A stretch of 64,000 nt of DNA from Chiloscyllium plagiosum (GCF_004010195.1 NC_057717.1:106455127-106519126); one strand, 5' to 3'. Positions 12,793-53,072 are shown, numbered from the stretch's first letter. Translations and numbers: made by a program. Notes: a model not told the origin generated them from the sequence alone.

Positions 12793-12986
12793 TTATGGAT
12801 CAAGTTCCTCCAAAGGAACATCTTCCTGATGATCATTCCCACTGGGCTTCTGTGAATTGGGTTTTCTTTTGTTTAATTTATACTGTCTTCTTTTCTGGGA
12901 TCTCCACTTGCAGTACAAGGTCAACACTGGAACTATTATCAATAGTATTGCTGCTCCTGCAATCACTAGTATTATCCATATGAAAT
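12793..12986 (-). CDS. Gene A terminal exon, transmembrane plus cytoplasmic tail
   Basis: ttttcatag acceptor, phase 1. DFIWIILVIAGAAILLIIVPVLTLYCKWRSQKRRQYKLNKRKPNSQKPSGNDHQEDVPLEELDP* has a basic juxtamembrane segment and YKL like the ICAM-1 tail. Not in the ORF track. Confidence 0.88.
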
Positions 12987-13384
12987 CTATGAAAACATTG
13001 AAAAAACAGAAATCAAATAATCAACAGTGTGGGAAATAATTAATTGCAAAATGCCTGAATATTTCTGAAATCTGTGGATTATAAACAAAGGGTATTTTCC
13101 AATGGAATGTCCCGTGTGCTTTATTCAGCTCTTTCATGGCTGTTTTCCTGCTTGTATTCTTCACCTTCTTTCATTCTTCCCACATCACACCCCACTCCTT
13201 GGCAGTCTGCCCTCAACTCACTGTCTATACCTGTTTACATTCTGCAGGAATTGCACACGGATAAGTAGATTTAATGTAATGTTCCATACATTTGATATCA
13301 AGATTTCTTTTTAAGATGGTTCAGAATTTCCAGCAATCATAATTATTTCCTGTCTCTTACATTGCTATTAGCATGATTATCATG

Positions 13385-14610
13385 TTTTTTTTGTAAATAT
13401 ATTTATTAACAATTTTTTTTAATTTTACAAACATATAAAATTATTGAAAAAAAAATCACAAATATCAGTATAATAAAGAAAAAAAAAATACAAATTACAA
13501 TACAACTACTATCTACTAACTACTAACCTACTCTATAATACAAAGCAAACCCTAACACTGTGCAAAGCAACACCAAAAAAAGAAAGAAAACTAAAAAAAA
13601 TACAAAACAAACACAAAATACAGAACAGCTATGCTCAGCGCAAGGCTCCCAAACAGGAACGGGAGCATTGTATATATACCCATATTAACTCGGGAGACCT
13701 CCTCCAGGGCCCAGGGCTTGACAAATCTAATCATCCTGGTTAAACAAACACCCTAGTTAAGATAACTGACAAATCTATATCCAGATAACTCAAGTAGGCT
13801 GCCATGCCTTATAAAAATGGTCTGTTGTGTAGTGCACCATGTTTGTGAAAAGGTCCAAGGGAATGTGCTCCATAATTAATTTCTGCCGTCCCACCAAGCC
13901 CTGCGGGTTCTCTGACACCCAATTCATCAGAATATTCTTCCATGCACAGTATGTAAGAATATTAAATAGTTTCTTCCCATGCCCGTCTAAAGATGGTAAA
14001 TTCGGTAGACCTAAGAGGAGAGATTTCGGGTCTACTTTGACTTCAGTCCTCAATACCCTCCCTATCTCTCCCGCCACAGCGCTCCAATAAACACAGAGCC
14101 TGTGGCATGTCCAGAAGCAGTGGGTAAGAGTACTTATTTTACATTTGGGGCACACTGAAGATGCCCCTTTTTTAAACTTTGCCAGGTGGTCTGGTGCCAG
14201 ATGAGCCCTGTGCAGAACTTTTAACTGCATAGCGCATGTCTATTACAGACTGAGATCTTTCGAGTATTCTCCCGTCTGTTCTCCCATGTTTCAGAAGAGA
14301 TCTCCACTCCCAGCTCTTGCTCCCAGACCTCACATATCCTGCCAGGCCCTGCCACCCAACAGGCGATAGAGAGCACTAACTGAAAGGGTGCTTGTGAAAC
14401 GTAGCAACAACCTCTCTGTATTGGGCTTATAGGGCTTAGTGAGAAGTGTAGTCTTCTTCTGGATGAAATCCATAACCGGAAAAAAACGGAAAAGGTTTCT
14501 GCTGGGCAACCCGTGTTTGCGGCTCAGTTGCTCAAAAGACATTATAACCTCCCCCTCAAACAAGTCTCCCAAACTAGAAACTCCTCTCGCTGTCCATAGT
14601 TTGAACCAAC
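13385..14610 (-). mobile_element. 5'-truncated L1-clade LINE (ORF2 C-terminus, 3' UTR, poly(A))
   Basis: QLKVLHRAHL...CPKC...LTHCFWTC zinc-knuckle region; AATAAA near 13400 followed by an A run. Confidence 0.85.
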
Positions 14611-15184
14611 ATGGATTGTTAACATGAATAATACTCCTGACTGCAGGAATAGCCCCAGCATTGATAATAGTTACAGGGATGGCCTTTTACTGGAATCCTG
14701 TCTTTCTTTTTAAGTTTCCAACCCTAATATTCATTTGTATTTTCCCCAAGACACTGATTTGAGCTGCTGTGTTTGCAGTACCTCCAGCTTGTACTTTTTC
14801 ACTGCTTTTCCCTGTTGCTCCCATCACAATGAGAAGTGAAGCCCAGAGACATGTGCTGCACTCACTGATCTGCCAAAACTCTGCTCCATGGAGTCACAAT
14901 GTGTGGATTCACAGCCATGAAGTGTCCCACTCCTCCTACCTTGGAGTTATTCCCCAGGCAGGTGGGGCAAACACAGAGCAGGAGGATGGCGCTTCTACAC
15001 ACAAAGAGGAACACATGCAAGAGAGTCTCACTCTGAACCACCCATACCCAATGTACCAAAGGCCAGTTACAGAGCAGCATTGTTAGAGGCAGGCAACAGT
15101 TTATCCATTTGTCCCATTGTCAGGAAGGGTGCAGTAAAACAGGAGCCCAAACTAGTAATGACAATAGAAATATTAGATTCTGAC

Positions 15185-15493
15185 CTTTGACCCTGAGGTC
15201 CACTTCCTTCTCATCAATTCCATATTGATTGGTAGCTCTACATTTATAAATTCCTTGATGCTCTGAGGTTACGTACGGAATGTGCAGAAACCCAGAGGGA
15301 CCAATCACAATGTTGCTGCCATTACTGGGGTTTACCCACTCTAATGTAGGTGAGGGTCTTCCATTGGACTTACAGCTTATTGTAATTTCATCACCTTTAG
15401 TAACTTCTACTGGAATGCTTGACATGGGTGTGTTATTTCCTGATATGGTTTTGTCATTTACCGATATGGTCATGATTGTGTCTCGTGGTTTAT
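15185..15493 (-). CDS. Gene A membrane-proximal I-set Ig domain (D6) exon
   Basis: ttctctcttccag acceptor, gtcaga donor, 309 nt. ITISCKSNGRPSPTLEW...GIYKCRATNQYG...VDLRVKG. Confidence 0.9.
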
Positions 15494-15845
15494 CTGGAAG
15501 AGAGAAGAAAAAGATGAAAATAGGCAGGCAGACAGGATCACTGATACAGCTCTCCAACACGGCTTCAATTAACAGGATGTCCAAACCTCCCACATACCGT
15601 GCTGTCATCTATCTTCCAACAGTCATTTCAGAACAGGTGAATCTCTGCAGTTGTGTTATAGCCTGGGACATACTTACAGTCATCTGTTATTATGAGGTAT
15701 GTTCACAGTGAAATGCAGTCATTGTGTAAATATTAATTCAGCATTACAACTACTGGAACTCATGGTCTAAGAATATCACACAATGTTCACGGTGCTCGGA
15801 ATATAGGGAGATTCAAAGATTCAATTTCCTAGAATCTGACATCAC

Positions 15846-16091
15846 ACAAAATAGTTACATTTAGAGATGAGGTTTTCGATCAGTGCTCATTTTTGACCAT
15901 GCACACGTACAGTCCCCCATGCTGCATTTGAACAGATGGGATGTAGAGTATTTCTCTGCTTTCCATTTTCCCATCTTTGATCCAGAACCTCTGGGGATCT
16001 GGGTTCCCTTGCCCATGACATGTTAAATTCTGTGATTCCCCTTCAATCCAGTTTTCTTGAGCTTTAAAGATCTCTGCTTTTACTGGTGCAT
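15846..16091 (-). pseudogene. Gene A Ig D5 exon with in-frame TGA (pseudo-exon or truncating exon)
   Basis: ttacag acceptor, 246 nt. YAPVKAEIFKAQENWIEGESQNLTCHGQGNP...GGLYVCMVKNEH*SKTSSLNVTIL; TGA at 15880-15882 occupies the Gly of the NxxG motif. Weak gtgatg donor. Confidence 0.75.
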
Positions 16092-17139
16092 CTGTAAAGT
16101 TCATTCCAATCAAAAATTAAATTATGATACTGAACAACTCAAAGTTCAAATATTCTTCCAATTCTTCTGCTCATTCTTTCTGGTGCTCTCCAGATTTTAA
16201 TATTTAGAATAAAATTGGTTTCTATTTTAAAACCCAGTGTCTGTATCAAACAGAACCAGGCAAAGTAAAACACAGGATAAAAGGAGGAATAACCTGCCCT
16301 GAATTCTGTGAAAAATGTAACATTCTGAGTGCTGCTTTTGAGAAATTTCCAATTTATTTTAGGTTTCTGTTTGGATCCTGATTAATTGAGGGAAAAAAAG
16401 GCAAATAAATTTTACTGAGGGGTTCCCCTCATAGGATAATTATAATAGGCTTTTTAAATACTGGGACATTGCCTGAGATAGTGGTAATATAAAAAGGGAA
16501 AGCATTCCTAGGCTGTGTTCAGGAGAATTTTCTCCAGCCGTAAGTGTCCAGACCGATAAGAAAGGAAGCACCGCTCAACCTGGTCATGGGAATGGGCCAA
16601 ATGGAGCAAGTGTCAGTGGGAGAACATTGAGGGCTCAGTGATCATCGTATCATCAGTACAATGGCAGAAAATGACATTGGTCAATCCAGAGTATGAATAT
16701 TCAACTGGGGGAGAGTGGCCTTCAGTAGGGCAAGAACACAGCAGGATCAAGTGAACGACAACCAAAGGCTCACGGGAAAATCAATGGCTGAACAATGAGC
16801 TGTCTTCAGAGAAGAAATGGTCTGGTCTGAAGAAATGGCCTTCTTCAGGCAGGGCTTATGCCCAAAACATCGATTCTCCTGCTCCTTGGATGCTGCCTGA
16901 CCTGCTGCGCTTTCTTTTCCAGCAACACATTTTCAGCTCTGATCTCCAGCATCTGCAGTCCTCACTTTCTCCCTGTTTATGACATGTGTCAGGTAGTAAT
17001 TACAGTTGAGAACCAAGTACAATACAGAAGGTTCAGAAGTGATGTTAAAAAGCAAAATGAGAAACAGATTATGTGGACTGACAGTTAACATAAAGAAAAT
17101 CTGGATATCACTGACAGACACATCTACAATAAAAACACA

Positions 17140-18820
17140 GAACATTATAGCGCAGAACAGGCCCTTCGACCCTTGATGTTGTGCCGACCTGTGAAACCAA
17201 TCTGAAGCCAATCTAGCCTACATTATTCCATTTTCATCCATATGTTTATCCACTGACCATTTAAATGCCCTAAAGGTTGGCAGGGTGTTCCACATCCTTA
17301 CTACTCTCTGCGTACCTCTGACATTTGTCCTATATCTATCACCCCTCAATTTAAAGTTATGTCCCCTCGTGCTAGCCATCACCATCCTAGGAAAAAGGCC
17401 TTCCCTCCATACCAGGTAACATCTCAGTAAATCTCCTCTGGATCCTTTACAAGGCTTCCACATTTTTCCGACAATGCAGTGACCAGAACTGTACATAATA
17501 CTCTAAATGCGCCATACCAGAGTTTTGTACAGCTGCAACATGACCTCATGGCTCTGAAACTCTCTCCCTCTACCAATAAAAGCTAACACACTGTATGCCT
17601 TTCTTAACAACCCTATCAACCTGGGTGGCAACTTTCAGGGATCTATGTACATGAACACCGAGATATCTCTGCTCATCTCCACTACCAAGAATCTTACCAT
17701 TAGCCCAGCACTCTGCATTCCAGTTACTCCTTCCAAAGTGACTCACCTCACAATTTTCTGCATTAAACTCCATTTGCCACCTCTCAGCCCAGCTCTGTAG
17801 TTTATCTATGTTCCTCTGTAACCTGCAACATCCTTCCGCACTATCCACAACACCACCAACCTTAGGTCATCTGCAAATTTATTAATCCATCCTTCTGTGC
17901 CCTCATCCATGTCTTTTATAAAAATGACAAAACAGCAGTGGCCCCGAAACAGATCCTTGCGATGTACCAGTAGTAACTGAACTCCAGGATGAATATTTCC
18001 CATCAACTACCACCCTCTGTCTTCTTTCAGCTCACCAATCTCTCATCCATGCCCCTAAATCGCCCTCAATCCCTATACCTCCATATTTTCTGCAAAGTCT
18101 ACTGTGGGGAATCTTATCAAATGCCTTATTGAAATCCATGTACACACATCAATCATTTTACCCTCATCCATCTGTTTGGTTACCTTCTCAAAGTACTCAA
18201 TAAGGTTTGTTAGGCACGACCTACCCTTCACAAAACTATATCGACTATTGCTAATCAGCTTATTCCCTTCTAGATAATTATAAATCCTATCTGTTTGAGC
18301 CCTTTCCAACACAAGCAAAGTAAAGTTCACTGGTCTATAATTATGTGAGTTGTCTCTACTCCCCTTCTTGAACAAGGGGACAACATTTGCTATCTTCCAG
18401 TCTCTGGCACTATTCCTGTAGACAATGCCAACATAAAGATCAATGCCAAAGGGTCTGCAATCTCCTGCTTGGCTTCCCAGAGAATCCTAGGATAAACCCC
18501 ATCTGGCCCAGGATAATTATGTGAGTTGTCTCTTCTCCCCTTCTTGAACAAGGGGACATTTGCTATCCTCCAGACTTCTGGCACTATTCCTGTAGACAAT
18601 GCCAACATAAAGATCAATGCCAAAGGGTCTGCAGTATCCTGCTTGGCTTCCCAGAGAATCCTAGGATAAACCCCATCTGGCCCAGGGGTCTTATCTATTT
18701 TCACACTTTCCAGAATTGCTAGCACCTCCTCCTTGTGAACCTCAATCCCATCTGGTCTCGTAGCCTGTATCTCAGTATTCTCCTTGACCACATTGTCTTT
18801 TTCCAGTGTGAATACTGATG
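17140..18820 (-). mobile_element. CR1 LINE fragment with an internal ~176-bp tandem duplication (18337-18685)
   Basis: KTPGPDG, FKKGSRD..NYRP and KFADD motifs; the duplicated block is also visible in ORF 18390..18863. Confidence 0.9.
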
Positions 18821-21800
18821 AAGAGGGTGGTGTAAGGGGGATTCGGGACAATGAAAGGGGCAAGTGGCATGGCTGAGGTGGTAAACTATTTTTCTATTTC
18901 TGTCTTTACCAAAGAGGTAGATGCTGCCCAGGCCATGGTGACAGAGGAGGAAATTTCATCACTTTGAATGGTTTAGATTTGATAAAGAGGAGCTTTTGGA
19001 TAAGCTGTCAATATCTAAAGGTGAAAAGGTGAAGTGATGGGAAACAGAGAGTAACAGCTAATGAATACTTTATGGGCTGGAAGTAAACTTGTAGTAGAGA
19101 TCCCCAGGGTTGTAATGACTATACCCTGAATGTTTGAATATAAACAGTCTTGATCATGTTGTGTAAGGGACAATTCCAAAATGTGTTCATGTCACAAAAT
19201 GTGGAAGCATTGTAAACTGTGAGGAGGACAATGTCAAGGTAATCTATAAGGGCTGAAGTAGGCAGATGGGTGACAGAGGCAGTGGCACAGTGGTATACAG
19301 TTAGCAACAAGTTGTCCTGGGATGCTTCAACATTGAATCTGGACCCCAGAAAGTGACATGACATTTGGTCAAACATGGACAAGGAAACCTCCTGCTGATG
19401 ACCATAATCCCCTCCTATTCTGAATTTGTACTCCTCCATCTTGAACATCATTTAGAGGAAACACTGAGGGTAGCCGGGTGCAGAATGTACTCTGGGTGGG
19501 ACACTTCAATGTCCATTGCCTAGAGTGACTCGGCAGCATCACCACTGACTGAGCTGTTCACTAGACTGGATCTGTGGCAGGTCAAGAGGAAACCAATGAG
19601 AGGAACAAGCAAACTTGACCTCATCTCTACCAATTTACTAGCTGCAGATTAGTCTATCCAAGACAGTAGGAGTGATCACCACACAGTCCTCGTGGAGACA
19701 AAATGCTGTTTCCACATTGAGCCCTCATCATGTTGTGGGCTCTATCACTGTGCTAAATGGGATACACTTTGAACAGATTTGGTAACTCAACACAGAGTAT
19801 TCAGGAGGTACTGTGGGCAATCAGCTGCAGCAGAATTGTACTCAGCCCCAAAATCAGAAATTGCTGGAGAAATTCAGGAGGTCTGGCAGCATGTGTAGAG
19901 AGAAAGCAGGGTTAATGTTTCAGGTTCAGTGACCCTTGTTCAATAATGATTGTTGGCAGGAAAAGGTTTGTGTATATGCTGAAGGAAGGGTGGGAGGGAG
20001 GGGAATGGAGTAACCAATAGATGGAGATGGAGCTCGCAGAGACAAAAACAGTTGGGCAGACAAACAGAATGATCAAGGTCAGCCTGGGAGAGTGAATAGC
20101 TGCTGATGGGGACCATGCATTGTTCAAGGTAGCAGCCCATGTGGTGACAAGGCCTTGTCTTAATAGTTTTTTTTTGCTTCTTTCACGTTTTCACAAGGGA
20201 CACAAAGTGAGTGTTTCATTAAATTATAGTCTGTTAATACATCATGCATACCATTTCTATGCTGATTTAACATATGTGTTCACCTTTGTAATGCTTCTGA
20301 GGCATTGCTTTTTCAAATAACTAGCGATCACTCCAATCCATGTATCAATATATTTATCTGCTATAATCTAAATTCACTTTGTGAATCAGAACAATCCATT
20401 TCTCTCCATCAAAAGGCCAGAAGTGGGTATGTTTGCAGATGATCGCACAATGTTCAGCATCATTCACAACTTCTCAGATATTAATTTAAAATCGCAGTGA
20501 TTCATAACATTGCATTTAAAATCATTGAATACGTCTGTGTTAGCTTCTGACAATGAGAGGTCCCACAGGAAAACTGTTCACACTTACCTGCAGTTTTTCT
20601 TTCATTCATGTGGGTTGGAACTTTGTTTATAACTGGGAATGTTCTGTCATGGAGTGTTAGTGCCTGCCAATTGGTGATAATATAGTTTTGGAGCAGTGAA
20701 TTACAGGAACGTGAACTCAAGCTCTGAATCTGTGAGATGGTGGCAAGAAGATGAACCTGGCTTACAGAAGGAGAGAATTGGAAATGTAGGATTTCTGGCT
20801 ACAAGATAGTTTGGAGAGACAAGTTAAAGGACATGTTGATGGCTGGACTAATATTGATTTAAGAAATGTTCATAACACTGGAGAGGGGTGATGGTCAGAA
20901 TTTTATACTTGCTTTCATGTGTGGACTGACAAGTGGGGATGTGGTGGGAGGCTGGTGAGTAAAAATCAGACAGAATTCCAAAGGGCACGATGCCCGTGAC
21001 CTGGAACTGGACTGCTGTCTTTAAAGTCAACATTTTGGGAGCACTGAGCTGCATTACGCTTTCATCAGGTGGTAACCTACAGTGAATATTTTACAAAGCC
21101 TCTTGCTGCATTCATAACGCAGCTTTTTAAAACCTTGCTCACTGAGGCCATTTCCACAAATTGGCTCTGCTCCCCCTCTCCCTCCACGACCACATGAAAT
21201 GGTGAACCCCTCTGACAATGAATCTGATGCAATCTCTTCAATTGGAAGGAAATGGAAAGCCTCCTTCATGGAGATGCTGCATGGAAAATAGGAATTGAGC
21301 ATCCACATGGCACAGATTGCATACTTGCCACAAACTATATCCTCATGGATGAAATCAGGGATGAGGCTCAGTCCCAGGAAGATCACATTCTCTGCCATCG
21401 GTTGTGAGAATACAATATCCTTCAATTGGCCACTGTCAGCAAACAGTGACAAACTTTTACAATGTCTGCCTTCTTATGGCAACATCTTAGGTACAAGTGC
21501 CATGGGACAGTTCTTGGACACAGCAGAGAAACAAAAGGAATTGCATTACTGACAAGTTGAAAAATAAGATAAAAATACAGTAACACAATAACACGAAAGG
21601 GTTGACATTACAGCAAGTTGGAGATTTCAAATAGGCATTACAGTACAGCAGCTCAGCACAGGGCTCCACACATGATCTGCATGCCCACACCAGACCCTAG
21701 TCCAACAGCCGTCCTCTCTCAGCTGCTCCAAGTTAAGTGGCTAAACTATCTCCCCCGTGGAGGTCTCTGCCTGGGACTCCTGCCTGCGCACTGCTCTGGG

Positions 21801-21834
21801 GCTGTTTCCCTGCACTGTACAGGTGCTAACAGCC

Positions 21835-21980
21835 CACCCTCTGTACCAGGGCTCACAGCCCACCCACTGTACCAGGACTTTTACCCACCCACTGTACCAA
21901 GGCTATCACACACCCACTGTACCACGGCTATCACTCACCCACTGTACCAGGGCTATCACCCACCCCCTTTACCAGGGCTC
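21835..21980. repeat. Minisatellite, about 6 x 25 bp (cacccactgtaccagggctatcacc-like)
   Basis: Directly visible imperfect tandem units. Confidence 0.85.
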
Positions 21981-22836
21981 GTTGCACTCAGTGTTCCAGA
22001 GTTCAGTGTTCCGTGTTCCAGGAAGTGCACACTGCACTGCCAGGAGCCCTCATTTCTCTACTGCTGTCCCTTCATTAACTCACTTTACCCACTTTCAAAT
22101 TCAGCTCATGTCAACACATTTTGCATCTACTGAACAGCCGAGCTACACAAGAATATTGGAGGGAAAGACATCCGTCATTACAGCTGGAGGGTGTGCTAGA
22201 TTAACCTCTAGGAGTTTTTCAGTTTGTGACTTCTTTTGTTTTTACATTTTATTTATTTTACCCTCAGCAAATTATACCAGAAAAAAGAGAACCATTTCTT
22301 CACAGAGTATTTCTGTTTAAGTGTTGGACAATATATCACTCTTTTTGCAATCTTCATGGGCTGAATGTTAACTATTCATTTTTCACAACTGTGTCCAATT
22401 ATCTCCATTGAAGATGCTATTCCAGGATAATTCAGGTCCTATTATTATCCCACACATTACAATAGCTCACTGTGACTCAACTTTAAATTTCCCCTCTGCT
22501 GTCCATGTGGAATTGCCCATTCTTCCTTCAGTATCATTCCAGTGATCTGGTTAATATGTAGACCTTGCTTCATGGGAAGTGAACACACACTCCCATGATT
22601 GCACTCTGTGGCACAATGCACCGGGGTAATAATGGACAGTGTCCTCACATGTCCTGACCCCAGGATCTGTATCCCTTTGGTCTCAGTGACAAAGGAGCTG
22701 CTGCAGGGCAGTCCCTGTGTGAGGAGACCAATTCAAATTGGTTCGGACTAAGAGGAAAGTTGAGATGAGGATTTCATTGTCTCCATTTGAAAAAAAAATC
22801 CCACTGACTTTTTGTGGGGAAAGTAATGCTACTTAC

Positions 22837-23124
22837 ACAGGACATGGAGGGTTTCAATCTGTTGTTTAATAACAGGGCTTGTCATTGACTGATCTTGAAG
22901 TTTCAGTTCAGCTTCACAGATATACTGCTGTCCATCCAGCTTAGCTTGAGCTTCTACTGTATGAGAGATAGTGAGCCCAGTACTGCTTGATCCACTCACT
23001 AATATGTCATTTCCTTTCTTCAGACTGAGTTCAAGATCCCCTGAGACATTTAACACAAGGCATGTAATATTAACCAGATTTCCTTCCTGGCTGGTTGGTA
23101 CTTGGATTTCAGGGGAAGAGAAAG
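22837..23124 (-). CDS. Gene A Ig domain D4 exon
   Basis: tatttttag acceptor, gtaagt donor, 288 nt. AFSSPEIQVPTSQEGNLVNITCLV...LDGQQYICEAEL...LHVL resembles ICAM D4. Confidence 0.88.
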
Positions 23125-24653
23125 CTAAAAATAATAGAAAGATACTGTTAGAAACATTGTTGTATCTAGTAGTCCCTCAGTGTGAGGTTAATAACAATGA
23201 AACAAAGGCAGGCGGCACTCAGTGCTAATTACTCACTATCCACTTCACTGCTGTATCAGGGAGATGTACACAGCCCCACAGTATCTTTCTGTATTCCCTC
23301 AGTATTCCTGGTGTTCTGGTCAGCATACATCCCTGATCCAAATCCCCTGGAACTATTGAACTGTTGATTCTGCTCATTTCTTTTTGTAGAATCCTACAAT
23401 CTCATTTATTTTCATTGTTCTCAAGACTTTGGAAGCACTGAAGGAGCCACATTTAACACCTATCCTCAGTGAGTTTACTGTAAGTGGTTCACTCCAGAGG
23501 ATATGTGCAATCGAAACAATGGAACTGCTCATCAGTAATAATTCTCTGGCTCTGAAGCAATCTGAGATCTCCTGAGGGTGAGTATGTGATTACATGAATG
23601 CAAAATTCTTCTTTAATTTGGTGCTCTGATCATTTGTGTTTGCAACTTTTGAAACTATATTCATCATTATTGTAAAATATACACTGGCCAATCTCTTTAC
23701 GGGTAACTGCTTCTCAGGAGGTTTCATTCTGCATGAAGGTTCTGTTTTGTCAGCAGCTGCTTTAATATTCCATGTCGTACAAATACCTTCAACGATTCCA
23801 TTGTCTAAAGGTGGATAGCAATATTTCCTCTGATATTTGTTGTTATGTGTGACCCACGTTTCACTGACTACTCCTTGAAAATGTCTACAAAACCCCCAAT
23901 CTTGAAGAGGGCCACGACCTGTTTCTTCCCACAAGCTGCCAATGCTGGAGATACTCAGCAGTTCTAGGAGCAAGTATGCAGGGAAAGCAGACTTAACATT
24001 TCAAGTCCATTGACTGTTCACCACAACTCAAGAGTTTCTCCAGCATCTTCTGTTTATCATTTCAGCTTGTCGGGAACTTTGGTTGTTAGGGAACTTCAGT
24101 TACGTGTAATTAATGACTTAGTGATCAATGATTTATTCATGGAAGAGGATGAAAACACCTTAACAGTTAGAGATTCTCTCTTTTCTTTTCATACACCATT
24201 TTCTTTTGTCAATCTGAAACCTCAGGTTTATAATCCAAATGATAAGATCACTTGTTTAAACATTTAAACATTCTGTTGTGATCCTGGAATACTAAGTGTG
24301 AGTAACATTCACCTATGAGCAGCACCTATGATTGACAATGTCAATCACATTATCTCAGGATCTCGGAATACCTCGAGTCATTAAGACTTTCTCAGAATGC
24401 TTTTCATTGACAGAGGGTCATATAGAATATATGGCACAGAAACAGACCATTCCAACGAATTAGCCAATGTTTATGCTTTACTCAACCAAGTGTCTGAGTA
24501 TACAAACATTTCCACAAGCTTCCCAATTTGTTACTCAATGAAAAGGATTTTATTACTGAAAGTGGTGGAAATGTTGACATGTTGTATTGTTGACAGTGAT
24601 GAACTATCAGAATGTTGTCTGATTTTGAACTCCCCCACAACCAGCATTCTTAC

Positions 24654-24855
24654 CATACACCTCAATGAAAGCACTATTATTCTTTGGGGGAATTGATGGA
24701 TATTTCTCAAAATCGGCCATACAGACGACTTCCATCAGACCAGATTCCTGTGGTGTCCATGCTGCTGTTATTCGGACAGTGTTGGAATTTGGCCTTGTGG
24801 TATCTGAGTTCAGTTCCACACCATCCTGAAACCATCTTACTCTCATCTTCTCAGC
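24654..24855 (-). pseudogene. Gene A Ig D3 exon remnant, 5'-truncated (probable pseudo-exon)
   Basis: AEKMRVRWFQDG...VVCMADF...IEVY with an intact gtaaga donor. The first Cys and the acceptor are missing; a Penelope-derived repeat fragment sits in their place (about 24855-24970). Confidence 0.7.
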
Positions 24856-25615
24856 TTATGCCTGAAATGTCAGCTCTACTGCTACTCGGATGCTGCCTTG
24901 CCTACTGTGTTTTTCCAGTGCCACACCTTTTGACTCTGACTCTCCAGCGTCTGCAGTTCTCAGTGTCTCTCTATCTATGACATCCTGGCTAAGGCTGGGA
25001 TTTCAGTGTTCATAACCCAGGTGTAGATTTTTGTAGTTGTCTTTGCCCTCTCTTTATAATGAGGTTTTCTGAACTATTTATCACCCCCCTCTCCTCATTA
25101 CTGAGTGATGTTTAAGGCAGCGTGGTGAAATTCCTTCAGAAATTCCTGTCACTGTCAGGAATCTGCTGGCTGCCATGTGGCAAAGCAAGAGGTGACTGCC
25201 TCAGCCACCCAGTGTTCCTGAAAGTGGAAGGAGCGCCCATCAGTACACTTTAACCAATGGAATGTCTGGCAAGTCAGAACATACTCCAACTTGAGCTCTC
25301 CACCTTGAAGAAGGAAAATCAAGAGATGTGGGAACGGGTAAGGACATGGGGCTACAGTCAAAGATTAGTTATTGAACAGCAGAGTAGGCTCAAGGAGCTA
25401 AATGGCATATTCCCACACCTGTTCCTTATGTTCATCTGCCTCGCAAAGACTTTATTGACTTTTTTGGACTAGATTTTGCACACCCTCTGGCAGGCTTAAA
25501 GACTTGTGGAACATTTACATATTGCTTCCCATTGCTTATTCTCAATAAGTTATGGATATTTAATCTTTGATATTCTCTCAACAAAGAAAGCATTTTTTGT
25601 GCAATTGGAACTTAC

Positions 25616-25930
25616 CGTAAGTTTGCAGAGTGACAGAAGAGTTTGTGATTGACTTTGTGGTATTAGAGCCCAAGTCCACTTCAGCCAAGCAGGTGTATTC
25701 CTGTCCATCATCTGATCGACTTGCAACGAAATTGAAGACATTTCTCAACCTTTTATCTTCATCCGGAAGACCTGGTTCACCTGTGGAATCTCTCTGGACA
25801 ATCTCACTCCCTCTCAGCCATGTGAGAATGAGTTTGTTGTTTGGATAGACTCTTGGGCCAATGCACTCCAGACTATATGTTCTGTTAATCTCCAGTACTT
25901 CAGGGAGTAATGTAATGCTTATCTCTCGAT
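25616..25930 (-). CDS. Gene A exon 3, Ig domain D2
   Basis: ttttcatag acceptor, gtaagt donor, 315 nt open frame NREISITLLPEVLEINRTYSLECIGPRVYPNNKLILTWLRG...DDGQEYTCLAEVDL...LQTY, resembling ICAM/VCAM D2. Absent from the ORF track because it has no internal start in frame. Confidence 0.92.
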
Positions 25931-26678
25931 CTATGAAAAATAGTTAACAGAATTCTTTGAAATAATAGGTCTCTGAAAACTCCAGTTCTACTCTTGTTTA
26001 CTTTCAACATATCTATCTTTCATTCCATATATAAATAGTCCTTGTGTGCAGTAAAGTTTATCCCAGCCTGTGCCTGGCCCATCAAGCAGTGATCAAATTC
26101 TTTTTCATGCATCATGCTCTACACTATGGCAAGAACATGGAGTTGGGATTCTGATTTAATAGCACTAAAATGCGCACTGTTTTCAATAACAACATATAAA
26201 ATTGTTGCTGAATCAAACCATAAAATGATACGACAAAGGAGGCAATTCTGTTGAGCAATCTTCTCCATTCCCTCCAATCGATTCTACTAACCAGTTCAAA
26301 CCCCACACAGCTGTCAATTCTCCTTCTTCAACATGGTTCCAGTTCTCCTGCATATTTTTAGTTCAAGTGTTTATCATTCATCTTAATGTAACCTTAGGCC
26401 AGGAAATACATGAACTCCTGCAGCAACTCACCAAGCTCCTTCATGAGCTCCCCCCCCCCCCACATCTGTGGCCACTACCATCAGGAAGGGCAAGGGCAGC
26501 AGAAACATGGGAGCACCACAACCTACAGGTTCCTCTCCAAGCCATTCACTATCCCCCCAACGCCTCATCTTCATCAGACTGGTGAGTTTTGGCATTCATA
26601 GTTGGTTGCAATTGTATAATCAGCCAAATCTCACTTTACCCTGTGCTTTGGTGCTGTGTTTGACTAAAGTTAAACACT

Positions 26679-26819
26679 AGGAGAAAGTGAGGACTGCAGA
26701 TGCTGGAGATCAGAGCTGGAAAATGTGTTGCTGGAAAAGCGCAGCAGGTCAGGCAGCATCAAAGGAGCAGGAGAATCAACGTTTCGGGCGTAAGCCCTTC
26801 TTCAGGAATCCTTCAGGAG
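26679..26819. mobile_element. Penelope-derived short element with 15-bp target-site duplication (TSD)
   Basis: ctaaagttaaacact at 26664-26678 and 26820-26834; hammerhead-like motif on the minus strand. Confidence 0.8.
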
Positions 26820-26884
26820 CTAAAGTTAAACACTGCACACAATAAAACAGCAAATTACTGCAGATACTCGAATCTGAACTGAAA

Positions 26885-28700: not shown

Positions 28701-28990
28701 CACTATTCCTCATTTCCCCTTCCCCCACCTCACCCCAGCTCCAACCTTCCAGTTCAGCACTGCCCTCATGACCTGTCCTACCAGCCTATCTTTTTTTCCA
28801 CCTATCCACTCCACCCTCCTCTCTGACCTATCACCTCCATCCCCACCCCATTCACCTATTGTACTCTCTGCTCCTTGGATGCTGCCTGACCTGCTGTGCT
28901 TTTCCAGCACCACTCTGATCCAGACCCATGGAGAGAAAAACAAGCTAACTTTTTGAGACGAGATGACTCTTCATCAAAACTGAAGTGAAG

Positions 28991-29072
28991 TGTGGAGAGG
29001 GCAGCATTTATGTGCAGGGGGTGGGTTGGAGTGTGGAGAGGGCAGCATTTATGTGCAGGGGGTGGGTTGGAG
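28991..29072. repeat. Exact 41-bp tandem duplication
   Basis: tgtggagagggcagcatttatgtgcagggggtgggttggag twice. Confidence 0.9.
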
Positions 29073-31572: not shown

Positions 31573-31829
31573 CTGCCAAGAAAACAAACCACAGTAAATA
31601 CTGAGACATACAACCCATTTGAGTCAAGATCATTGGAGCTGATGTGAAACCAGCCCAGTAAGTAGGCTTCTTTTAAAACAAGACACCTCTTTTACGCAAA
31701 TAACAGGAGCTTAGAAATTTACTGTATAGAAGGAAAACACTTGACCCATCAAATCCCTACCAGCTATAAAGTGCTACCTGACCTAATCTGTAGCCTCAAA
31801 GATTACAGTGAATATCCAAATATTGAGAA

Positions 31830-34944: not shown

Positions 34945-34980
34945 ATTCCTGATGAAGGGCTTTTGCCCGAAACGTCGATT
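34945..34980 (+). ncRNA. Minimal hammerhead ribozyme motif (Penelope type, second family)
   Basis: attc-CTGATGA-a-gggc-tttt-gccc-GAA-ACGT-C-gatt; GUC cleavage triplet; short stem I. Confidence 0.55.
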
Positions 34981-35707: not shown

Positions 35708-35774
35708 CTGTTACAATGAACAGCAACTTGAAATGCCAAATACATTCAGCCAGTGAAGTTAGTCTCGAATCCAT
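35708..35774 (-). CDS. Gene A (ICAM/VCAM-like) exon 1, signal peptide MDSRLTSLAECIWHFKLLFIVT
   Basis: ATG at 35774-35772, 22 codons plus 1 nt (phase 1), donor CAG|GCAAGT. Joins exon 2 in frame to give ...LLFIVTATVTG|FEV, a plausible cleavage site. Lies in non-repeat sequence next to promoter-like motifs. Confidence 0.7.
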
Positions 35775-36000: not shown

Positions 36001-36139
36001 CTCTTTTTATTTCAATCCTTCAAAAACCCCTGCACATCTTTCGTTTATTTTCTTATAATTTTTAAAGGTTTCATTCATTCTGCTGTCTGAGTCTCTCAGG
36101 ATTCAGGGTGCACATGCCGCCACTCCGGTGTAATGTAGA

Positions 36140-42625: not shown

Positions 42626-44934
42626 GTGAGAGAAAAAGGTTTCTAATTAAATCTATCAACATTAGATACTTGAATATAACCTTTTAAAGAGTCTGTTGTT
42701 AATGTACCTCAACAATGAACTGTTTAATTTTTTCAAAGAAATTGGAAAGACTTCCTGCAAAATGAATCATTTTGATAAGGTAGTGAAGTTTCATTAACCA
42801 AACAAAGATCATGAAAATAACTAAAGTCTCAATGTAGCAAGAAGAAAGATGTAATGAGGCACATGGATGAAAGAAATGCAGAGAGGCTGGATTTCTGCAA
42901 TCCCAGAACCAGAGACCACTGATTCAATGTGATTATCAAAGTAACTAACACTGATTTGAGAAAGCCTAAATGAGTCAGTGTGTGGTGAGGTTGTGAAATG
43001 TGCTGCCTGAGAATGTGATGGAGGTAGATACAGTCATGGATTTATAAAGAGAACTAAAGAAAGGTCATTTTCAGGACAACAGGGAAAGGTAATGGAGTGG
43101 GATGAGCTCAGCTGCTCTTACAGGCAGTGGGCACAGACAAGATGCATCCATTAGCTTCCTTCAGTGCTGCATCTATTCCTCACTTCTATTCAATAAATGT
43201 GAAAAAGGTTCCAACACCTGACCTAAATTTGCCTTTGAGTGTTTCTCTCTGTCCATTTCATGGCAAAGCTTGACATCCTGGTTTGTAGAAGCAGTCACTG
43301 CCTTTCAAACCTGAAAAGCTCAAGTTTCTTAATTCTTTCTTCACACCTCTGTCTGACATGTGAAATGTTTCTTACAGATGAACTCAAGGATCTGCAGGGA
43401 GGATTTGTGACCTGGTCCTGTATCTCACTTGACCATGTCTTGCCAACATCCCAACCAGTTCATATTTCATGTCTTCCTGGACAATTCAGCTCCCCTTCAT
43501 TGGTAGCACAATGCTGTGGATATTGGAAATCTAAAACAAACACAGAGAATGTTGGTGAAACTCAGCAGGTTTGTCAGCATCAGTGGAACGGGTAGCAGAG
43601 TTAGTCTTTCGAATATGGTATGGCTCTTCTTCAAAACAGATCCTGTTGTGTTTCTCTAGCATTCTCTGCATTTGTTACAGCTATTCTTCAGATTGAGATT
43701 CAGGGTACAATGTCAACTTAGATTTGGAGACCAATTGGCTTTTAACATTCCTTAAGATTGGAGTGGGGGAGGGTTTAAGACTAGGGGGCACATTTTTAAA
43801 TTGAGAGGAAAAACATGAGAAGCAACGTTTTTTACGCAGAGGGTGGTTTGTGTGTGGAATGAACTTTCTGAGAAAGTGGTGGATGAGGGTACATTTCCAA
43901 TGTTTAAAAGATATTTGGATAAGTACTCAAATAGGAAAGGTTTGGAAGGATGTGGACCAGAAACTGTGGGATGAGTTTAGTTTCGAATTATGTTTGGCAT
44001 AGACTGGTTGGACCGAAGGTCTGTTTCCGTGCTGTTTGACCCAATGACTTTGTTAAGTTGGAAGATGTGGAGAGCATGCCCAACACTAGAAGGCCAAAGG
44101 GTTGGTCAATGTTGAGGCTGACAGCTCTGGAATTCAGCAAGGTGGTTCTGTTAGAGTCCCAGGGAGCAAGGATATCAAAATAAGTTTACAGTAGAACAGG
44201 CTGAAGGGATTACATTGGCTCCTGGTCTCCTGTTCCTTAGCGATGTGACATAGAAGGCAGGAAGTCCAGATTAGAGTGGTGCTGGAAAAGCACAGCAGGT
44301 CAGGCAGCATCCGAGCAGCAGGAAAATCAACATTTGAGGCAAAAGATTTGCTCTCATGTCTTTCCTCTCAACTTAAAAATGTGCCCCCCCCCCCCATCCT
44401 AGGGAGTGTTAAAAGCCAATTGGTCTCCAAATCTAAGTTGATATTGTGCCCTGAATCTCAATCTGAAGAATGGCTGTAACATCGGGAATCGTCCTGAAGA
44501 AGGGCTTTTGCCCAAAACGTCGATTTTTCCTGCTCCTCGGATACTGCCTGACTGCTGTGCTGTTCCAGTGCCACTCTAACCCTGACTCTAATCTCCAGCA
44601 TCTGCAGTACCCACTTTTGCATAGAAGAAGATTCTGCTAGTGATATAAGTAATAAAGATGCAGATGTGCAAGAGCCAGTCTTAAAAACAAAGGAAGTTCT
44701 TGGAGAGTCACAGCTGGAGAAGGTTACAGAGGTAGAGAAGGAAGACACCATTCAGAAAGAATTAGAGGTGAATATTTGCATAGTTCTCCTGTATCATCTG
44801 CAGAAAGCACAAGACATAGGACAAGAGACCTGCAAACAAACTCAAACCCAGGATATTTTCCAGAGTAGTTAGAAATGCTGTTTTTAAATTGTAAAATCTC
44901 GTTTCATATTCTAGTCCATTGCAGGTTGTTGTGA

Positions 44935-47525: not shown

Positions 47526-48878
47526 CACAAATGAATTTAACTAAAGTATTTTGATGGATTTTATTTAGTTGAGTTTATGCTGCTAACTACTTGCAATTAT
47601 TTTTGTGTGCTTAATGAATAGTTTGGAGTGTTGTAATTACCAATCTTTGTCGTTGCTTATGACATATTCATTGTTATGTTGAGAACATTCTTAGATGTCA
47701 TTTGTTGCTTTATAAATGAGATTTGAGTCAACTATATGGCAGATTAATGTGGAACTTTCCTGTAATGTATTTGTAACAATAAAATGTTGATTAAACGGTG
47801 GCACAATTTTATACACAATGAGTTGTCCAAATTTTCATGAGGTTTTGCTCCCTATTGACTAGACAAATGCTATATTTAAATCAAAATTTCCAAGGTCAGA
47901 ATTTTAAAAAAATTATTGAGGGAATAGCAATCATAAACTTGATGTAAACTGGAAATTTGTACAGTTAGAGAGCAGTCTTTCAATCTCCAATCTGTTCAAG
48001 GCTGCTATGGCAACCTTGTGGAGTGGAGATGGGATGGAATCACTGCATGAGTTGATAATTAACTCACTTGGCTAAGGTTTCTATGAATAATTTTGTGCCA
48101 ACTTACAAGCACGTGTACAACCAAGGAATAAGAGTAATTTGTCAGGCTCTTTGAGCCTGTTCTGCCATTATTAAAATCATCAATGATCTGATTTTAACCT
48201 CAATTCTACCCACTTCTTCATAGGCATAATCATCTTTAATTTTCTTAATAATCAAGAATCTATTTATCTCCACCTTAAAAATAGTGGCAATCCAAAGATG
48301 TTCAGGACAGGTGACTTGGCCATGCTAAATTGCCCATAGTGTTAGATGCATTAGTCAGGGGTAAATATAGGGTAGGGGAATGGGTCTGGGTAAATTACTC
48401 TTCGGAGGGTCAGTGCGGACATGTTGGGCCGAAGGGCCTGTTTCCATATTGTAGAGAATCTAATCACTGTATCTTTCTGGGTGATCAGTGCATTTCAATA
48501 AATACCAGCTCTGTTACCATATCAACCTGGTGAAGTTACTCTATCTCCTGAGTTGAAAGGGATTAATTTTTTGCTTAATAAAAAATTAAAATACTGCAGA
48601 TCCCACAAGTCAAAAATTTAAAAAAAGAAAATATTGAAATACTCAGCAATTGAAGAAGCATTTCAGGAGAGTAAAACTGAGTTAACATTTCAGGTCTGTG
48701 GGTTTTCTGAACTGCTTTGCAGACCTGTATTCCCAGTGATTTTAGGTTTAAAATATCAGCAAAGTCCTTTCAACACAGGAGATTTCAATGTGATCCAAAA
48801 CTTTACTGATAAAGGCCCCTTATTGCTGCAACCAGAACATAGAGATGAATCAACAAAACCTGTTACAATTTAACTTAC

Positions 48879-49193
48879 AGTACGTTTGCAGAGTGACAGA
48901 AGAGTTTGTGATTGACTTTGTGGTATTAGAGCCCAAGTCCACTTCAGCCAAGCAGGTGTACTCCTGTCCATCATCTGATCGACTTGCAACGAAATTGAAG
49001 ACATTTCTCAACCTTTTATCTTCATCCACAGAACCTGGTTCGCCTGTGGAATTTCTCTGAATAATCTCACTGCCTCTTAGCCATGTGAGAATGAGTTTGT
49101 TGTTTGGATAAACTCTTGGGCCAATGCACTCCAGATGATATGTTCTGTTAATCTCCAGCACTTCAGGGAGTACTGTAATGTTTATCTCTCGAT
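48879..49193 (-). CDS. Gene B Ig D2 exon
   Basis: ctttaacag acceptor, gtaagt donor, 315 nt; near-identical to gene A D2. Confidence 0.92.
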
Positions 49194-50464
49194 CTGTTAA
49201 AGGAGAATTACAGTTGACAGGATTCGCTGAGATAGTAAAGTCCACAAGGACCATTAGAGAGATGACTGATGCTGGTTTAACCAGATGGTCACCATACCTC
49301 AGATGAGGGCAGCAGCTGAAAAGGAGAGTCCTTCATGGTAACTTCAACTGGTATGGGAAATAACATTTCTGAGGACCATGGAGCCCTGTCCTTCCCAATG
49401 ATTCACTGTCACACAATGTTATACATGTACCAGACTAGATATTTCAGCCAATCACATTTATACCTTGCCATTCATTATTCGTCATTGCTCAGCACATTGA
49501 CTTGGGGACTTCTCAATCTGCACACAGCTCAAACTGTTAAAAGGGCTTATGCCCGAAACGTCGATTCTCCTGCTCCTTGGATGCTGCCTGACCGGCTGCG
49601 CTTTTCCAGCAACACATTTTCAGCTCAAACTGATACTCTGATTAGAAAACTGAAATTACTACTGACATCAGTAGCATTGTTAAAAGTAACTTTCAATTAA
49701 AAGATTTCTAACTGAAGTTCATTGAAACAACCAACAATAAAAATTGTCATTTTACAGAGGACCTGGACATTAATGTGTGTTGTTCTGTGGTGAGTGTTTG
49801 AACTAAAATTTGAAGAATATGGTTTATTCATCTTAATAGGAGGGAAAGAAACCTCACAATGTTTATAAAGTATGTGGATGAACCTCTGAAGTGTCATAAC
49901 ATTCAAGGCTACGGACCAAGTGCTGAAAAGTGAGATTAGTGTAGATAGGTATATGTGCAAACCCGTGCTCAAGGACTGTATGACTCTCTGACTCGCTAAA
50001 CTATTTCACCACTGAAATAATATCTCAGCTAAAGAATGTGCTCAGTTAAGGAAAACATTCACTTTATTTAAGGACCATCTTACTGTGTCTGCATCCTGCC
50101 ACAACTCTGTTTGAATGCTCGATCTTGTCAGATTGTACAACTTCCTGTGATGATACATGCTGTCTCTCATAAACGTATCATACAGTCACAGCTTCTTTAC
50201 ACTATAATGATGAGTTAGTGACTGTTGACACAAGCTATACAGAACACAAATGAACTACAAAATCTCATTGATTCTGTTCACCTTAAGATCTCTTTTGAGG
50301 TTACTTAGAATAAAATTAAGACATCCAGTATAATATCCAGTCACATCCTTGCCTTTGAGTGCTGCAGTGATTCTGGACAGTGAGGATATCCTAACCTTTG
50401 CTCCATCTGTATAGGGAACACTGCTCTTAAAGCAATATTACAACATTCCTGTTTCTTTTCCCCA

Positions 50465-50544
50465 GACGTTAAATCAAATACACTAAAGGTGAAAACATAG
50501 AAGTGACGTTAAATCAAATACACTAAAGGTGAAAACATAGAAGT
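50465..50544. repeat. Exact 40-bp tandem duplication
   Basis: gacgttaaatcaaatacactaaaggtgaaaacatagaagt twice. Confidence 0.9.
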
Positions 50545-51219
50545 GTTTATAGATCCACTGGAATGTCTGCATCTTTATTGAGTTTGCCAACAAGCCCAGC
50601 ATTTCCAAAGCGTCTATGAGGTGATCCACATGATGGACAATCCTAATGCATTCCAGGCCATCAAGCTGACACTTAAGCTTCTTTGTATGTGAATACTGCA
50701 CTTCTCTAACACGCAACACAACACCACCTTTAAAACTTCCTGCAGAATCAAACCTATCTGGTTACATTGTTGTATATCCTGGAATGACCCAATGTGAGTC
50801 TTGGTCTCTTCTGCTGCCCTCGCAGATTTCAGAGATAGGCATAAAGTCAAGGTCCATATAGGTTGGTGGTTCTGCCACTATCAGTTCACTTGGCTCTATC
50901 AGCTAAAATACTTGTGATCTCCATGCCAAATTGCCAGAGCTGCATTGTGATCAGAATGTGCCAATGCACGGCTTGGATAAACCATTGTATGCAGTTAATG
51001 TAGCAGTTATCAGTGTACTACTGAATTCCAATGATATCCTTCAAAATTCAGACTGATGGGATATCGCATTCTCTCCTGTGTTAGTCTTGGCTTGGAGTGG
51101 TGTTTGCCAGCTCTGTCTGAGAAAACAACATTGTTTCTGGCAAAAACTTCTCGTGAGTTGATTTTGTCCCACAGTGTGCTCCATTTACAAAGTGGGACTG
51201 GACAAGACACTGGAATACT

Positions 51220-51750
51220 GTGGGCAGTTATGGTCTCTCTCCTAAAACAAGAATGTTATGAAATTTGAAAGGTTCAGAAAATATTGCCAGGATTAGAGGG
51301 TTTGAGCAATAGGGAGAGGCTAAATAGGCTGGAGCTATTTTTCTGGAGCGTTGGAGGCTGAGGGGTGACTTTATAGAGGTTTATAAAATCATGAGGGGCA
51401 TGGATAGGGTGAATAGACAAGGTATTTTCCCTGGGGTGGGGGAGTCCAGAACTAGAGGGACATAGGTTTAGGGTGAGAGGGGAAAGATTTAAAAGGGACC
51501 TAAGGGGCAACTTTTTCACAGAGAGTGTACGTGTATGGAATGAGCTGCCAGAGGAAGTGGTGGAGGCTGGTACAATTACAGCATTTAATAGGCATCTGGA
51601 TGGATATATGAATAGGAAGGGTTTAGAGGGATATGAGCCAAATCTGGCAAATGGGACTAGATTAGGTTGGGATATCTTTTCGACATGGACAAGTTGGACC
51701 AAATGGTCTGTTACTGTGCTGTACATCTCTACGACTCTATGACTTTATGA
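51220..51750 (+). mobile_element. CR1 3' fragment
   Basis: WNELPEEVVEAG motif and tatgact tail. Confidence 0.88.
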
Positions 51751-52808
51751 TTGAAAGCTGTTCTATTCTGACAACACACCTGCAAGTTGCCCTCCAAGCC
51801 ACACACCAACCAGACTTGAAAATATGTTGTGATTCCTCAATGTCACTGGTTCATCATCCTGGAATTCCCTCCCTAAGGACATTGTGAGTCTACCTACAGC
51901 ATGTGGACTACAGTGGTTCAAGAAGGCTGCTCACTACACCTCGTCAAGGGCAACTAGGGACAGGCAATAGATGCTGGGCCCACCCAGCTATGTTCATGTC
52001 CCACAAGTGAATATAAAAATAATTCTGGCTCTTGACTTGTGTCTGCATTGCCATGAACTTTGTGTATTAGCTTACGTGGACTCAGTCTCCTTGTGTACTT
52101 CTTGCTGTCACTGCTGTCTTTATTGTGCTTGTTTTCTGGTTTTCTTTTCCTAGTGCAGCCTGCATGCTTGGAGATACATTTCTTGGATATAAGGGACCAG
52201 TCTTCTTTAGAACCACATACATCTTGTCAGGCAGGACAGCTTTGTGGTAACACTGGAGCACACAGTTTGCTTGCTTTTTCTGTCCTGGTTACAGTGCTGA
52301 TACTGCACCTAGTACCGAATGTTGTCCAGCCACAATGGCCTCATATTTTCTGCCATCTGCTCATAGTGAATCAATGATTTGACCTTGCCTTTTGCCAAGA
52401 GGTCATTTTGGAATGCTTTGATATGTGCTGAGACAATTACCAATTTTATTATCTGCTCCAATAGAGTGATCACTTGACGCATCCTTGTCTATGATGCTAC
52501 AATACTGAAGCGACTGTGACTGCTGGTTATGTGATGACATCTTGCCCTTTGCCCAGCCTCAATAACCTGTGAGTTACTTCATTCTAAATGTGGCTGTCAT
52601 TTTGTCCTTACGGTGTCTCTATGTTTGTCTGTACTCCATAATTTTGACTGAGCTTATCTCCTCAGTTTGTATGTAAAACAGTTTTGGGTGACACTGCAGC
52701 TTTTCAACACATTAAGATTCCTTTAGCCAAACATTTGCTGTACAGGCTAAAACATGTAAATTCTATCACCATTTTATTTTATTTGTTAATATAAAATTTT
52801 CCACTTAC

Positions 52809-53072
52809 TATATACAGTTATGTCTTCTCTTTTAATGTCAGTCGTATTCTCACATTGTACGAAACATATTATCGAGAAAGACCACCTGTGGATACTTGTG
52901 ATATTAACTGAGACCCATTGATCACTTTCCAGTTTGGGATAATTTCTTAGTCCTTCGATTGCTATGTAAGATCCTGCACATGACGTACTGCAGTTCACCA
53001 CCAAAGGGTCACCAAATGCCACAGCCAGGGGGTTTGCATTGACCTGTAGCTCCAATCCAGTCACTTTTCCCA
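52809..53072 (-). CDS. Gene B (ICAM/VCAM-like) Ig D1 exon
   Basis: gtatccacag acceptor, gtaagt donor, 264 nt. GKVTGLELQVNANPLAVAFGDPLVVNCSTSC...IAIE...CFVQC...ITVY with four Cys. Confidence 0.9.

Follow-up and report, generated by a model that had tools for sequence, protein, structure and literature searches.

A probable ICAM-family gene cluster in the whitespotted bamboo shark, viewed through two of its five members

Genes A and B, their exons and their database models

A stretch of 64,000 nucleotides from the whitespotted bamboo shark, Chiloscyllium plagiosum (C8:106455127-106519126, the whole of which is called the window here), carries two minus-strand genes, A and B, and the explanation that best accounts for the locus as a whole is that these are, in all likelihood, two members of a five-copy cluster of the ICAM family of adhesion receptors; searches beyond the window covered the 3.56 Gb genome assembly. 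The window is eukaryotic DNA with a GC content of about 42% and many retroelement-like frames. A reading made earlier from the sequence alone (the sequence-only reading) had assigned it to a probable shark and had described two minus-strand genes built of phase-1 immunoglobulin (Ig) exons, with six Ig exons or remnants in A and three in B (the first domain, D1, the second, D2, and a membrane-proximal domain). This description held, as C. plagiosum RefSeq proteins are 100% identical to exons of the window, and all of the Ig exons were located, with open frames and AG/GT borders, at or near the places where they had been expected; the four-Cys D1 with the motif INVE in gene A and IAIE in gene B was likewise seen in the exon translations. 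Both genes are already in RefSeq under ICAM-like names, so that novelty is low and the gain is one of refinement, not discovery.

The exons of gene B in the window are D1 (53072-52809, minus strand as for all exons of both genes), which matches the Pfam family ICAM_N and has four Cys and a Glu in IAIE, D2 (49193-48879, with AG/GT borders), a membrane-proximal I-set domain (46622-46344, Pfam I-set 42.7 bits) and an exon that encodes the transmembrane (TM) and cytoplasmic parts and contains the stop codon (45113-44935). These four exons, the last of which encodes the C-terminus, translate exactly to XP_043550979.1 (P0002, RefSeq ‘ICAM3-like isoform X1’). One protein among the 35 candidates from a search with gene B D1 was an ‘ICAM3-like’ protein of Hemiscyllium ocellatum, of whose 90% cluster XP_043550979.1 is a member, and RefSeq models of two sister species, C. 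punctatum XP_072420551.1 and H. ocellatum XP_060711200.1, were compared. The signal exon of gene B lies about 1.3 kb past the end of the window, and just upstream of the gene (C8:106519127-106559126) there are N runs of 326, 2445 and 500 bases, so the assembly is gapped beside the cluster.

Gene A opens with an exon holding the start codon and signal peptide (35774-35708, 22 codons and one base), which matches residues 1-22 of the C. plagiosum RefSeq ‘ICAM5-like’ model P0011 at 100% by tblastn and is followed by an intron with a GC-AG border (donor AG/GCAAGT, 35706-35708) instead of GT-AG. D1 (31572-31306; ICAM_N, four Cys, Glu in TINVE) is also 100% identical to P0011, which D2 (25930-25616, phase-1 AG/GT borders) matches as well, and one RNA-like contig stops exactly at the D1 border at 31306. 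A Met and hydrophobic stretch directly upstream of D1 was considered as a fused signal peptide and rejected, being a translated polypyrimidine tract; the hydrophobic stretch is conserved before paralog D1 exons, and the real signal exon is the one at 35774. Downstream of D2 lie a D3 remnant (24854-24654), which is the 3' half of an Ig exon with a new AG acceptor, D4 (23124-22837; open frame, AG/GT borders, present in P0074, a second RefSeq ‘ICAM5-like’ model), a D5 pseudo-exon of I-set type (16091-15846) with intact splice sites and an in-frame TGA at 15882-15880, the membrane-proximal I-set domain D6 (15493-15185, Pfam I-set 46.2 bits) and a TM/cytoplasmic exon including the stop codon (12986-12793), for which an orthologous tail is found in the C. 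punctatum model P0005.

Two of the six Ig exons of gene A, D3 and D5, are therefore damaged. At D3, homology with the paralogs ends at 24855, and DNA comparison with the paralog locus L010 showed about 1152 bp to be missing, spanning the 5' half of the D3 exon and part of the intron; the 30 residues that open D3 in P0011 (residues 218-247) are absent from the window. Insertion of a short interspersed element upstream of the remnant was rejected as the cause, since comparison with the paralog at the DNA level shows that sequence was lost here.

The sequence-only reading had called for the exon junctions to be mapped on transcripts. Contigs of three runs under the same species label (X1, X15 and X16, which are only guessed to be RNA or are of unknown kind, no run being listed as RNA) were mapped on 12700-32000, and they join the gene A exons from D2 to TM, with GT..AG ends, in up to three of these runs. 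D2 is joined to the D3 remnant (25616 to 24854) in X1 and X16, the D3 remnant to D4 (24654 to 23124) in X1, X15 and X16, D4 to D6 with D5 skipped (22837 to 15493) in X1 and X15, and D6 to the TM exon (15185 to 12986) in X1, X15 and X16. The joined contigs thus consist of D2, half of D3, D4, D6 and TM, a D1-to-D2 joint not being among the joints listed. The new acceptor of the D3 remnant (24856-24855) keeps the reading frame, and the gene A exons joined without D5 give a single 546-codon open frame with one unpaired Cys, which is in the half domain. X16 contigs with the D2 to 24854 joint show zero differences from the D3 remnant of the window; a D3 contig of X15 has four differences and does not have that joint and so fits a paralog, as do contigs with GGA at the position of the D5 TGA codon, which have further differences too. 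A single-cell raw-read run, X19, had too few reads on the exons to inform.

This damage raises the question of whether gene A may be a decaying transcribed pseudogene, leaving only gene B and copies outside the window as working adhesion receptors, and we regard this as a serious possibility, although one falling short of even chances. The deleted 5' half of D3, the unpaired Cys in the half domain and the TGA in D5 all speak for it, as does the presence of a stop in another D1 of the cluster (L019), and identity with the C. punctatum counterpart is as low as 86% for gene A D1, compared with 96% for gene B. Against it, the 546-codon frame is open and D1, D2, D4, D6, TM and tail are intact, the joints are present in up to three runs and forms without D3 occur naturally in relatives (for example P0014). 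We prefer to regard gene A as a longer form that would be in the course of losing domains, with D3 halved yet spliced in frame and the nonsense-bearing D5 skipped, and gene B as what appears to be an intact, old, three-domain form.

The RefSeq models divide gene A differently, into a chimera with a distal tail (P0011) and a headless tail gene (P0074), whereas the contigs link the head of A to its own tail. P0011 fits the window for exon 1, D1 and D2, while its D3-TM part matches a copy that lies outside the window, 33-42 kb below its start, where the P0011 D5 and TM exons are 100% identical. The start of P0074 is a Met within the D3 remnant, and its last exon is an alternative TM-like one (5053-4896), to which the P0074 C-terminus maps in frame and which lies outside the read-mapped stretch. 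If both models were right, the signal exon, D1 and D2 of A would be spliced over about 58 kb to the distal D3-TM exons and the stretch from D3 remnant to TM would be a separate, 5'-truncated gene. We think this unlikely, as in X1 and X16 the D2 donor is joined to 24854 in contigs that are letter-for-letter the D3 remnant of the window, and A-type D1-D2 is kept with an A-type tail in the C. punctatum read-through model P0005, which fuses B and A and has an intact D3 followed by D4 and D6, D5 being absent there too. In addition, the distal copy may have D1 and D2 of its own, in an inverted plus-strand pair. This pair (C8:106433363-106433611 and 106441270-106441635; L018 and L004) is flanked by gene A and the distal D3-TM tail, and the D1 in it, with the motif IVLEY, is undamaged and has diverged. 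Either the inversion is real or the assembly is wrong here, and the pair may explain the chimeric RefSeq model. With gene A taken as one gene from signal exon to its own TM exon, the two RefSeq models of it are flagged as doubtful.

D1 and the placement of the genes in the ICAM family

A four-Cys D1 with two disulfides is typical of ICAM, VCAM and MAdCAM. The sequence-only reading had taken A and B to be like ICAM and not like VCAM or MAdCAM, and Pfam ICAM_N, sequence matches in the PDB, D1 folds and a tree all agreed with it. Two of the 11 exon translations match ICAM_N (PF03921, cut-off 21), these being the D1 of A (30.7 bits) and the D1 of B (34.9 bits); as controls, camel ICAM-1 gave 119 bits and the D1 of the shark's own VCAM-1 gave no match. 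Among the other domains, D5 of A scored 43.4 bits for Ig_3 and 30.1 bits for I-set, and D5, D6 and the third domain of B exceed the cut-offs of I-set and Ig_3; D2 and D4 have sub-threshold generic Ig matches only, and the D3 remnant has no Pfam match. With phmmer against the PDB, B D1 gave two sequences at E ≤ 10, which were ICAM-3 (1.1e-4) and ICAM-2, and the best four of 10 for A D1 were ICAM-5 (twice), ICAM-2 and ICAM-3, with only ICAMs at meaningful E-values. HMMER aligns the IAIE of B with IALE of the ICAM-3 chain 1t0p_B.

The D1 cysteines are arranged as NCSTxC and CxxxC in both genes, with little or no variation in any of the four Cys columns over 44 members of the family. A Glu at the end of strand C had been claimed for both genes, and this was borne out by a conserved column which sits where structural models end the strand: E stands there in 29 of 30 chondrichthyan rows, and all 14 tetrapod rows have G-x-E two columns on, the loop from the second Cys to the Glu being one residue shorter in sharks than in mammals. 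AlphaFold2 modelled the D1 of A with a predicted local distance difference test score (pLDDT) of 93 and B with a mean of 82, the Ig domains exceeding 90; Glu38 is the last residue of strand 34-38 in A and Glu62 directly follows strand 58-61 in B, so that strand C ends at or just before the Glu in both.

Structure prediction of D1 had also been proposed as a check, and nine of the 10 top fold matches found by Foldseek for the model of A D1 are ICAM D1s: ranks 1-6 are ICAM-3, -5, -1, -5, -2 and -5, and ranks 1-6 and 8-10 together are D1s of ICAM-1, -2, -3 or -5 (TM-score 0.68-0.76, root mean square deviation 2.5-3.3), with no VCAM-1 or MAdCAM-1 among the 50 matches listed. For the whole B model, ICAM-5 D1-D4 and ICAM-1 lead, with generic multi-Ig proteins close behind. 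These latter proteins (Necl-4, IgLONs and titin score near the ICAMs), and the automatic naming of some relatives as hemicentin-like or Siglec-16, could be taken to mean that A and B belong to an unrelated immunoglobulin superfamily group, hemicentin-, Siglec- or nectin-like, that merely resembles ICAMs. We consider this extremely improbable, since all the D1-specific tests favour ICAM and a profile search recovers bona fide mammalian ICAM-1 in the same family at E < 1e-47.

Nearly as improbable is that A and B are ligands of alpha4 integrins of the VCAM-1 or MAdCAM-1 type, as the NCBI name ‘VCAM1-like’, given to many family members in elasmobranchs and the elephant shark, might imply. The middle domain D3 does resemble VCAM-1 D2 (Pfam ICAM1_3_5_D2 matches the true VCAM-1 D2 also), and the tail motif is shared with teleost VCAM-1b, but the key position is Glu and not Asp. 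MAdCAM-1 is marked by an Adhes-Ig_like domain, an Asp motif and a mucin-like region; no exon of A or B matches Adhes-Ig_like (PF09085) at E ≤ 1, no mucin exon was seen between their Ig exons, and PDB searches with the D1s gave no match to MAdCAM-1 or VCAM-1. Furthermore, a genome search with teleost VCAM-1b located a D1-like exon on C11 (67795567-67795839; L017 4490-4864, minus strand), which matches human VCAM-1 at 4.4e-21, aligns IDKP with IDSP and has no ICAM_N match, and because of this exon the shark is concluded to have a distinct, true VCAM-1 that carries the Asp motif, on another chromosome. Further Ig exons lie downstream of it. VCAM-1 (1vca, 1vsc) and MAdCAM-1 (1gsm, 1bqs) are alike to the cluster genes in superfamily, in the four-Cys integrin-binding D1, in the related middle domain and in the similar tail motif, and differ in having Asp in the C-D loop where the cluster genes have Glu and an ICAM-type D1.

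At E ≤ 0.001, a profile built from four relatives recovered 988 of 1.84 billion representative proteins. Names were obtained for 20 of the best 150, among them camel and opossum ICAM-1, ICAM5 of bird, frog and salamander, reptile proteins, nine proteins of teleosts and one of the elephant shark. A word-indexed search gave 78 proteins, 74 of them named from sharks, rays, skates or sawfish. NCBI names within this elasmobranch family are inconsistent (ICAM1-5-like, VCAM1-like, hemicentin-like and one Siglec-16); with a separate true VCAM-1 present, the label VCAM1-like seems to be misapplied, and names such as ‘VCAM1-like’ and ‘hemicentin-like’ are accordingly flagged.

A phylogeny against ICAMs and VCAM-1 had been proposed as a further check. 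IQ-TREE was run on 42 D1-D2 rows (40 picked over all clades from 186 segments and two VCAM-1 rows as the only outgroup, there being no MAdCAM-1 row; the other 144 were dropped), and it grouped A and B with tetrapod and teleost ICAMs, splitting VCAM-1 from all ICAM-like rows at 100/99. Within the ICAM-like rows the chondrichthyan clade had support of 98/99, bony vertebrates 94/83, teleosts 99/94 and tetrapods, including camel and opossum ICAM-1, 89/79. A lineage-specific cluster, as the sequence-only reading had proposed, is in keeping with the chondrichthyan sequences forming a clade of their own, and these are therefore co-orthologs of the whole ICAM family and not one-to-one with ICAM1-5; identity to tetrapod D1-D2 is about 22-26%. 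A first FastTree (186 rows, midpoint rooting) had put VCAM-1b beside the shark clade; a relationship on this basis was rejected, as a second VCAM-1 and the careful search showed this to be simply the outgroup position.

Genes A and B fall in different elasmobranch subclades. Skate and sawfish proteins comparable in length belong to the subclade of B (98/95), from which the three-domain form is taken to be old. The proposal that ectodomain length is set by exon loss is borne out for gene A, with its D3 deletion and its skipped D5 with nonsense codon. It is not supported for gene B, since rays have the old three-domain form too.

The cluster, its neighbourhood and its probable mosaic history

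Over the whole genome, ICAM_N matches five exons, all on C8 at 106.34-106.51 Mb, which are those of B, A, the intact inverted plus-strand copy, one copy with a premature stop and one further intact copy. The Glu is kept in all five D1s, and the cluster reaches about 150 kb beyond the window start. The D1 with the premature stop (C8:106397369-106397626; L019) is interrupted after ...SAQQ, so that this copy too is decaying. Matches to P0011 number 34 on C8 (106301723-106508223), with four weaker ones elsewhere. A genome search with Pfam C2-set gave nothing, controls included, and was uninformative.

The neighbours of the mammalian ICAM1/4/5/3 locus (human 19p13.2) are DNMT1, TYK2, MRPL4, CDC37, KRI1 and QTRT1. 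In the shark, DNMT1-RFD has matches on C8 only, at 105.45 Mb and 0.85 Mb away, and a JAK gene, one of four JAK loci, lies at 105.70 Mb and 0.6 Mb away, which may or may not be TYK2. A search with Pfam CDC37_N gave nothing anywhere in the genome, controls included, and was thus uninformative. One ancestral locus may have given rise to the chondrichthyan cluster and to the tetrapod and teleost ICAMs, the cluster then having expanded on its own. If so, the jawed-vertebrate ancestor would have had a single ICAM locus, beside DNMT1 and a JAK gene, before the ‘bony fish’ origin at which ICAM1 is put in PMC7916592.

The two genes differ in how far their parts have diverged. Between A and B, 97 of 104 residues of D2 are identical, compared with 27 of 90 aligned columns in D1, 41 of 102 in the last Ig domain and 18 of 67 in the TM/tail, and the only DNA alignment covers the D2 exon and extends a few dozen bases beyond it (90.7% over 366 bp; 48872-49237 vs 25609-25967). 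Quick trees of D1 only and of D2 only were made for 36 chondrichthyan rows. The D1 tree, from which the B-type group was defined, has a B-type clade across sharks and rays (97), and the D2 tree groups paralogs by species or genus (Stegostoma, five rows, 98; Mustelus, three rows, 95; Scyliorhinus, two rows, 96; Pristiophorus, two rows, 99). B-type monophyly is rejected by the D2 data, with a log-likelihood difference of 231 and an approximately unbiased test P of 5e-5, a pattern that fits exon-limited gene conversion. On balance it seems probable that the cluster is a mosaic, in which D2 is kept near-identical within each species by exon-limited conversion, the D1s have been distinct since before the split of sharks and rays, and middle domains have been gained and lost. 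Were this so, a common D2 platform would bear several old D1 specificities.

Predicted integrin binding and comparison with known ICAMs

Each gene would encode a type I membrane glycoprotein. Its ectodomain would begin with a four-Cys ICAM-type D1 and a D2 and end with a membrane-proximal I-set domain, the number of Ig domains between them ranging from none to several; a TM helix and a tail that is short and basic would follow. Glu34 or Glu37 of ICAM-1, -3 and -5 binds the metal of the metal ion-dependent adhesion site (MIDAS) of the alphaL I-domain, according to PMC4237329, and the strand-C Glu of the shark D1s would, by analogy, coordinate the MIDAS metal of a leukocyte I-domain (beta2-type) integrin. 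The A and B proteins would thus be predicted to bind I-domain integrins as ICAM-1, -3 and -5 do.

With mammalian ICAMs (ICAM-1, -2, -3 and -5; PDB 1iam, 1zxq, 1t0p, 3bn3, 4oi9) the shark genes share the ICAM_N four-Cys D1 and strand-C Glu, one Ig domain per phase-1 exon, and a short basic tail with Y-x-L-Q (the Y-K-L-Q-N-A of gene B resembling the Y-E-L-Q-K-A of camel ICAM-1); a membrane-proximal GNP-x-P motif is shared with camel ICAM-1 and a lizard ICAM5-like protein. DNMT1 and a JAK gene are in the vicinity, a neighbourhood that agrees with the mammalian one in part. They differ in having no one-to-one orthology, a pre-Glu loop shorter by one residue, and domain counts of three in B and, in A, six exons of which 4.5 domains are used. 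The rainbow trout ICAM-1 was cloned in 2021 (PMC8417878), and this and other teleost ICAM-like proteins (eel and bream ‘ICAM5’) likewise have the D1-D2 module, which one and the same profile recovers, and form their own lineage-specific clade; in teleosts the proteins are commonly tandem arrays of great length (up to 2505 amino acids and 18 matched stretches), whereas the shark genes are short.

In the literature on ICAMs in sharks and cartilaginous fish (paper supplements being outside the scope), no account of shark ICAM genes was found, the sole mention in the texts available being of Icam3 as a marker (PMC10529500), where nurse shark myeloid cells or clusters express a gene labelled Icam3 and integrin alphaM/alphaX genes. 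The present results indicate that cartilaginous fishes, a holocephalan among them, already had the ICAM family as one distinct from VCAM-1 and equipped with the integrin-contact Glu, and the whole ICAM family of C. plagiosum appears to lie in one cluster, giving a defined set of candidate counter-receptors for shark leukocyte integrins.

Several points weigh against the reading of A and B as integrin-binding members of an ICAM cluster that shares the locus of other vertebrates. The gene A product, with half an Ig domain and an unpaired Cys, may not fold or function; its joints are flagged ‘between: not known’ and come from runs only guessed to be RNA, and RefSeq joins the head of A to a distal tail (P0011) and makes its own tail a separate gene (P0074). 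In ungapped alignments the Glu of A stands one residue before the Glu of ICAM-2 and ICAM-5. Synteny with the human locus is partial: KRI1 is on C8 but at 100.06 Mb, 6.3 Mb away, Ribosomal_L4 is on C9 and TGT is on C12 and C34. Lastly, in the elephant shark only alphaE was identifiable among the leukocyte I-domain integrins in 2014 (PMC4237329).

Introns and flanks within the window (26971-28242, 17218-18893, 33055-34494, 37122-38084 and 1-590) hold long frames with reverse-transcriptase-like motifs such as F-A-D-D, which are probably fragments of long interspersed nuclear elements. A short interspersed repeat of about 80-130 bp has copies at about 16850-16970, 26680-26810, 28870-28920, 30620-30750, 32900-33000, 34950-35030, 44260-44620 and 49540-49630, and the summed contig depth over copies of this repeat is extremely high in the mapped runs.

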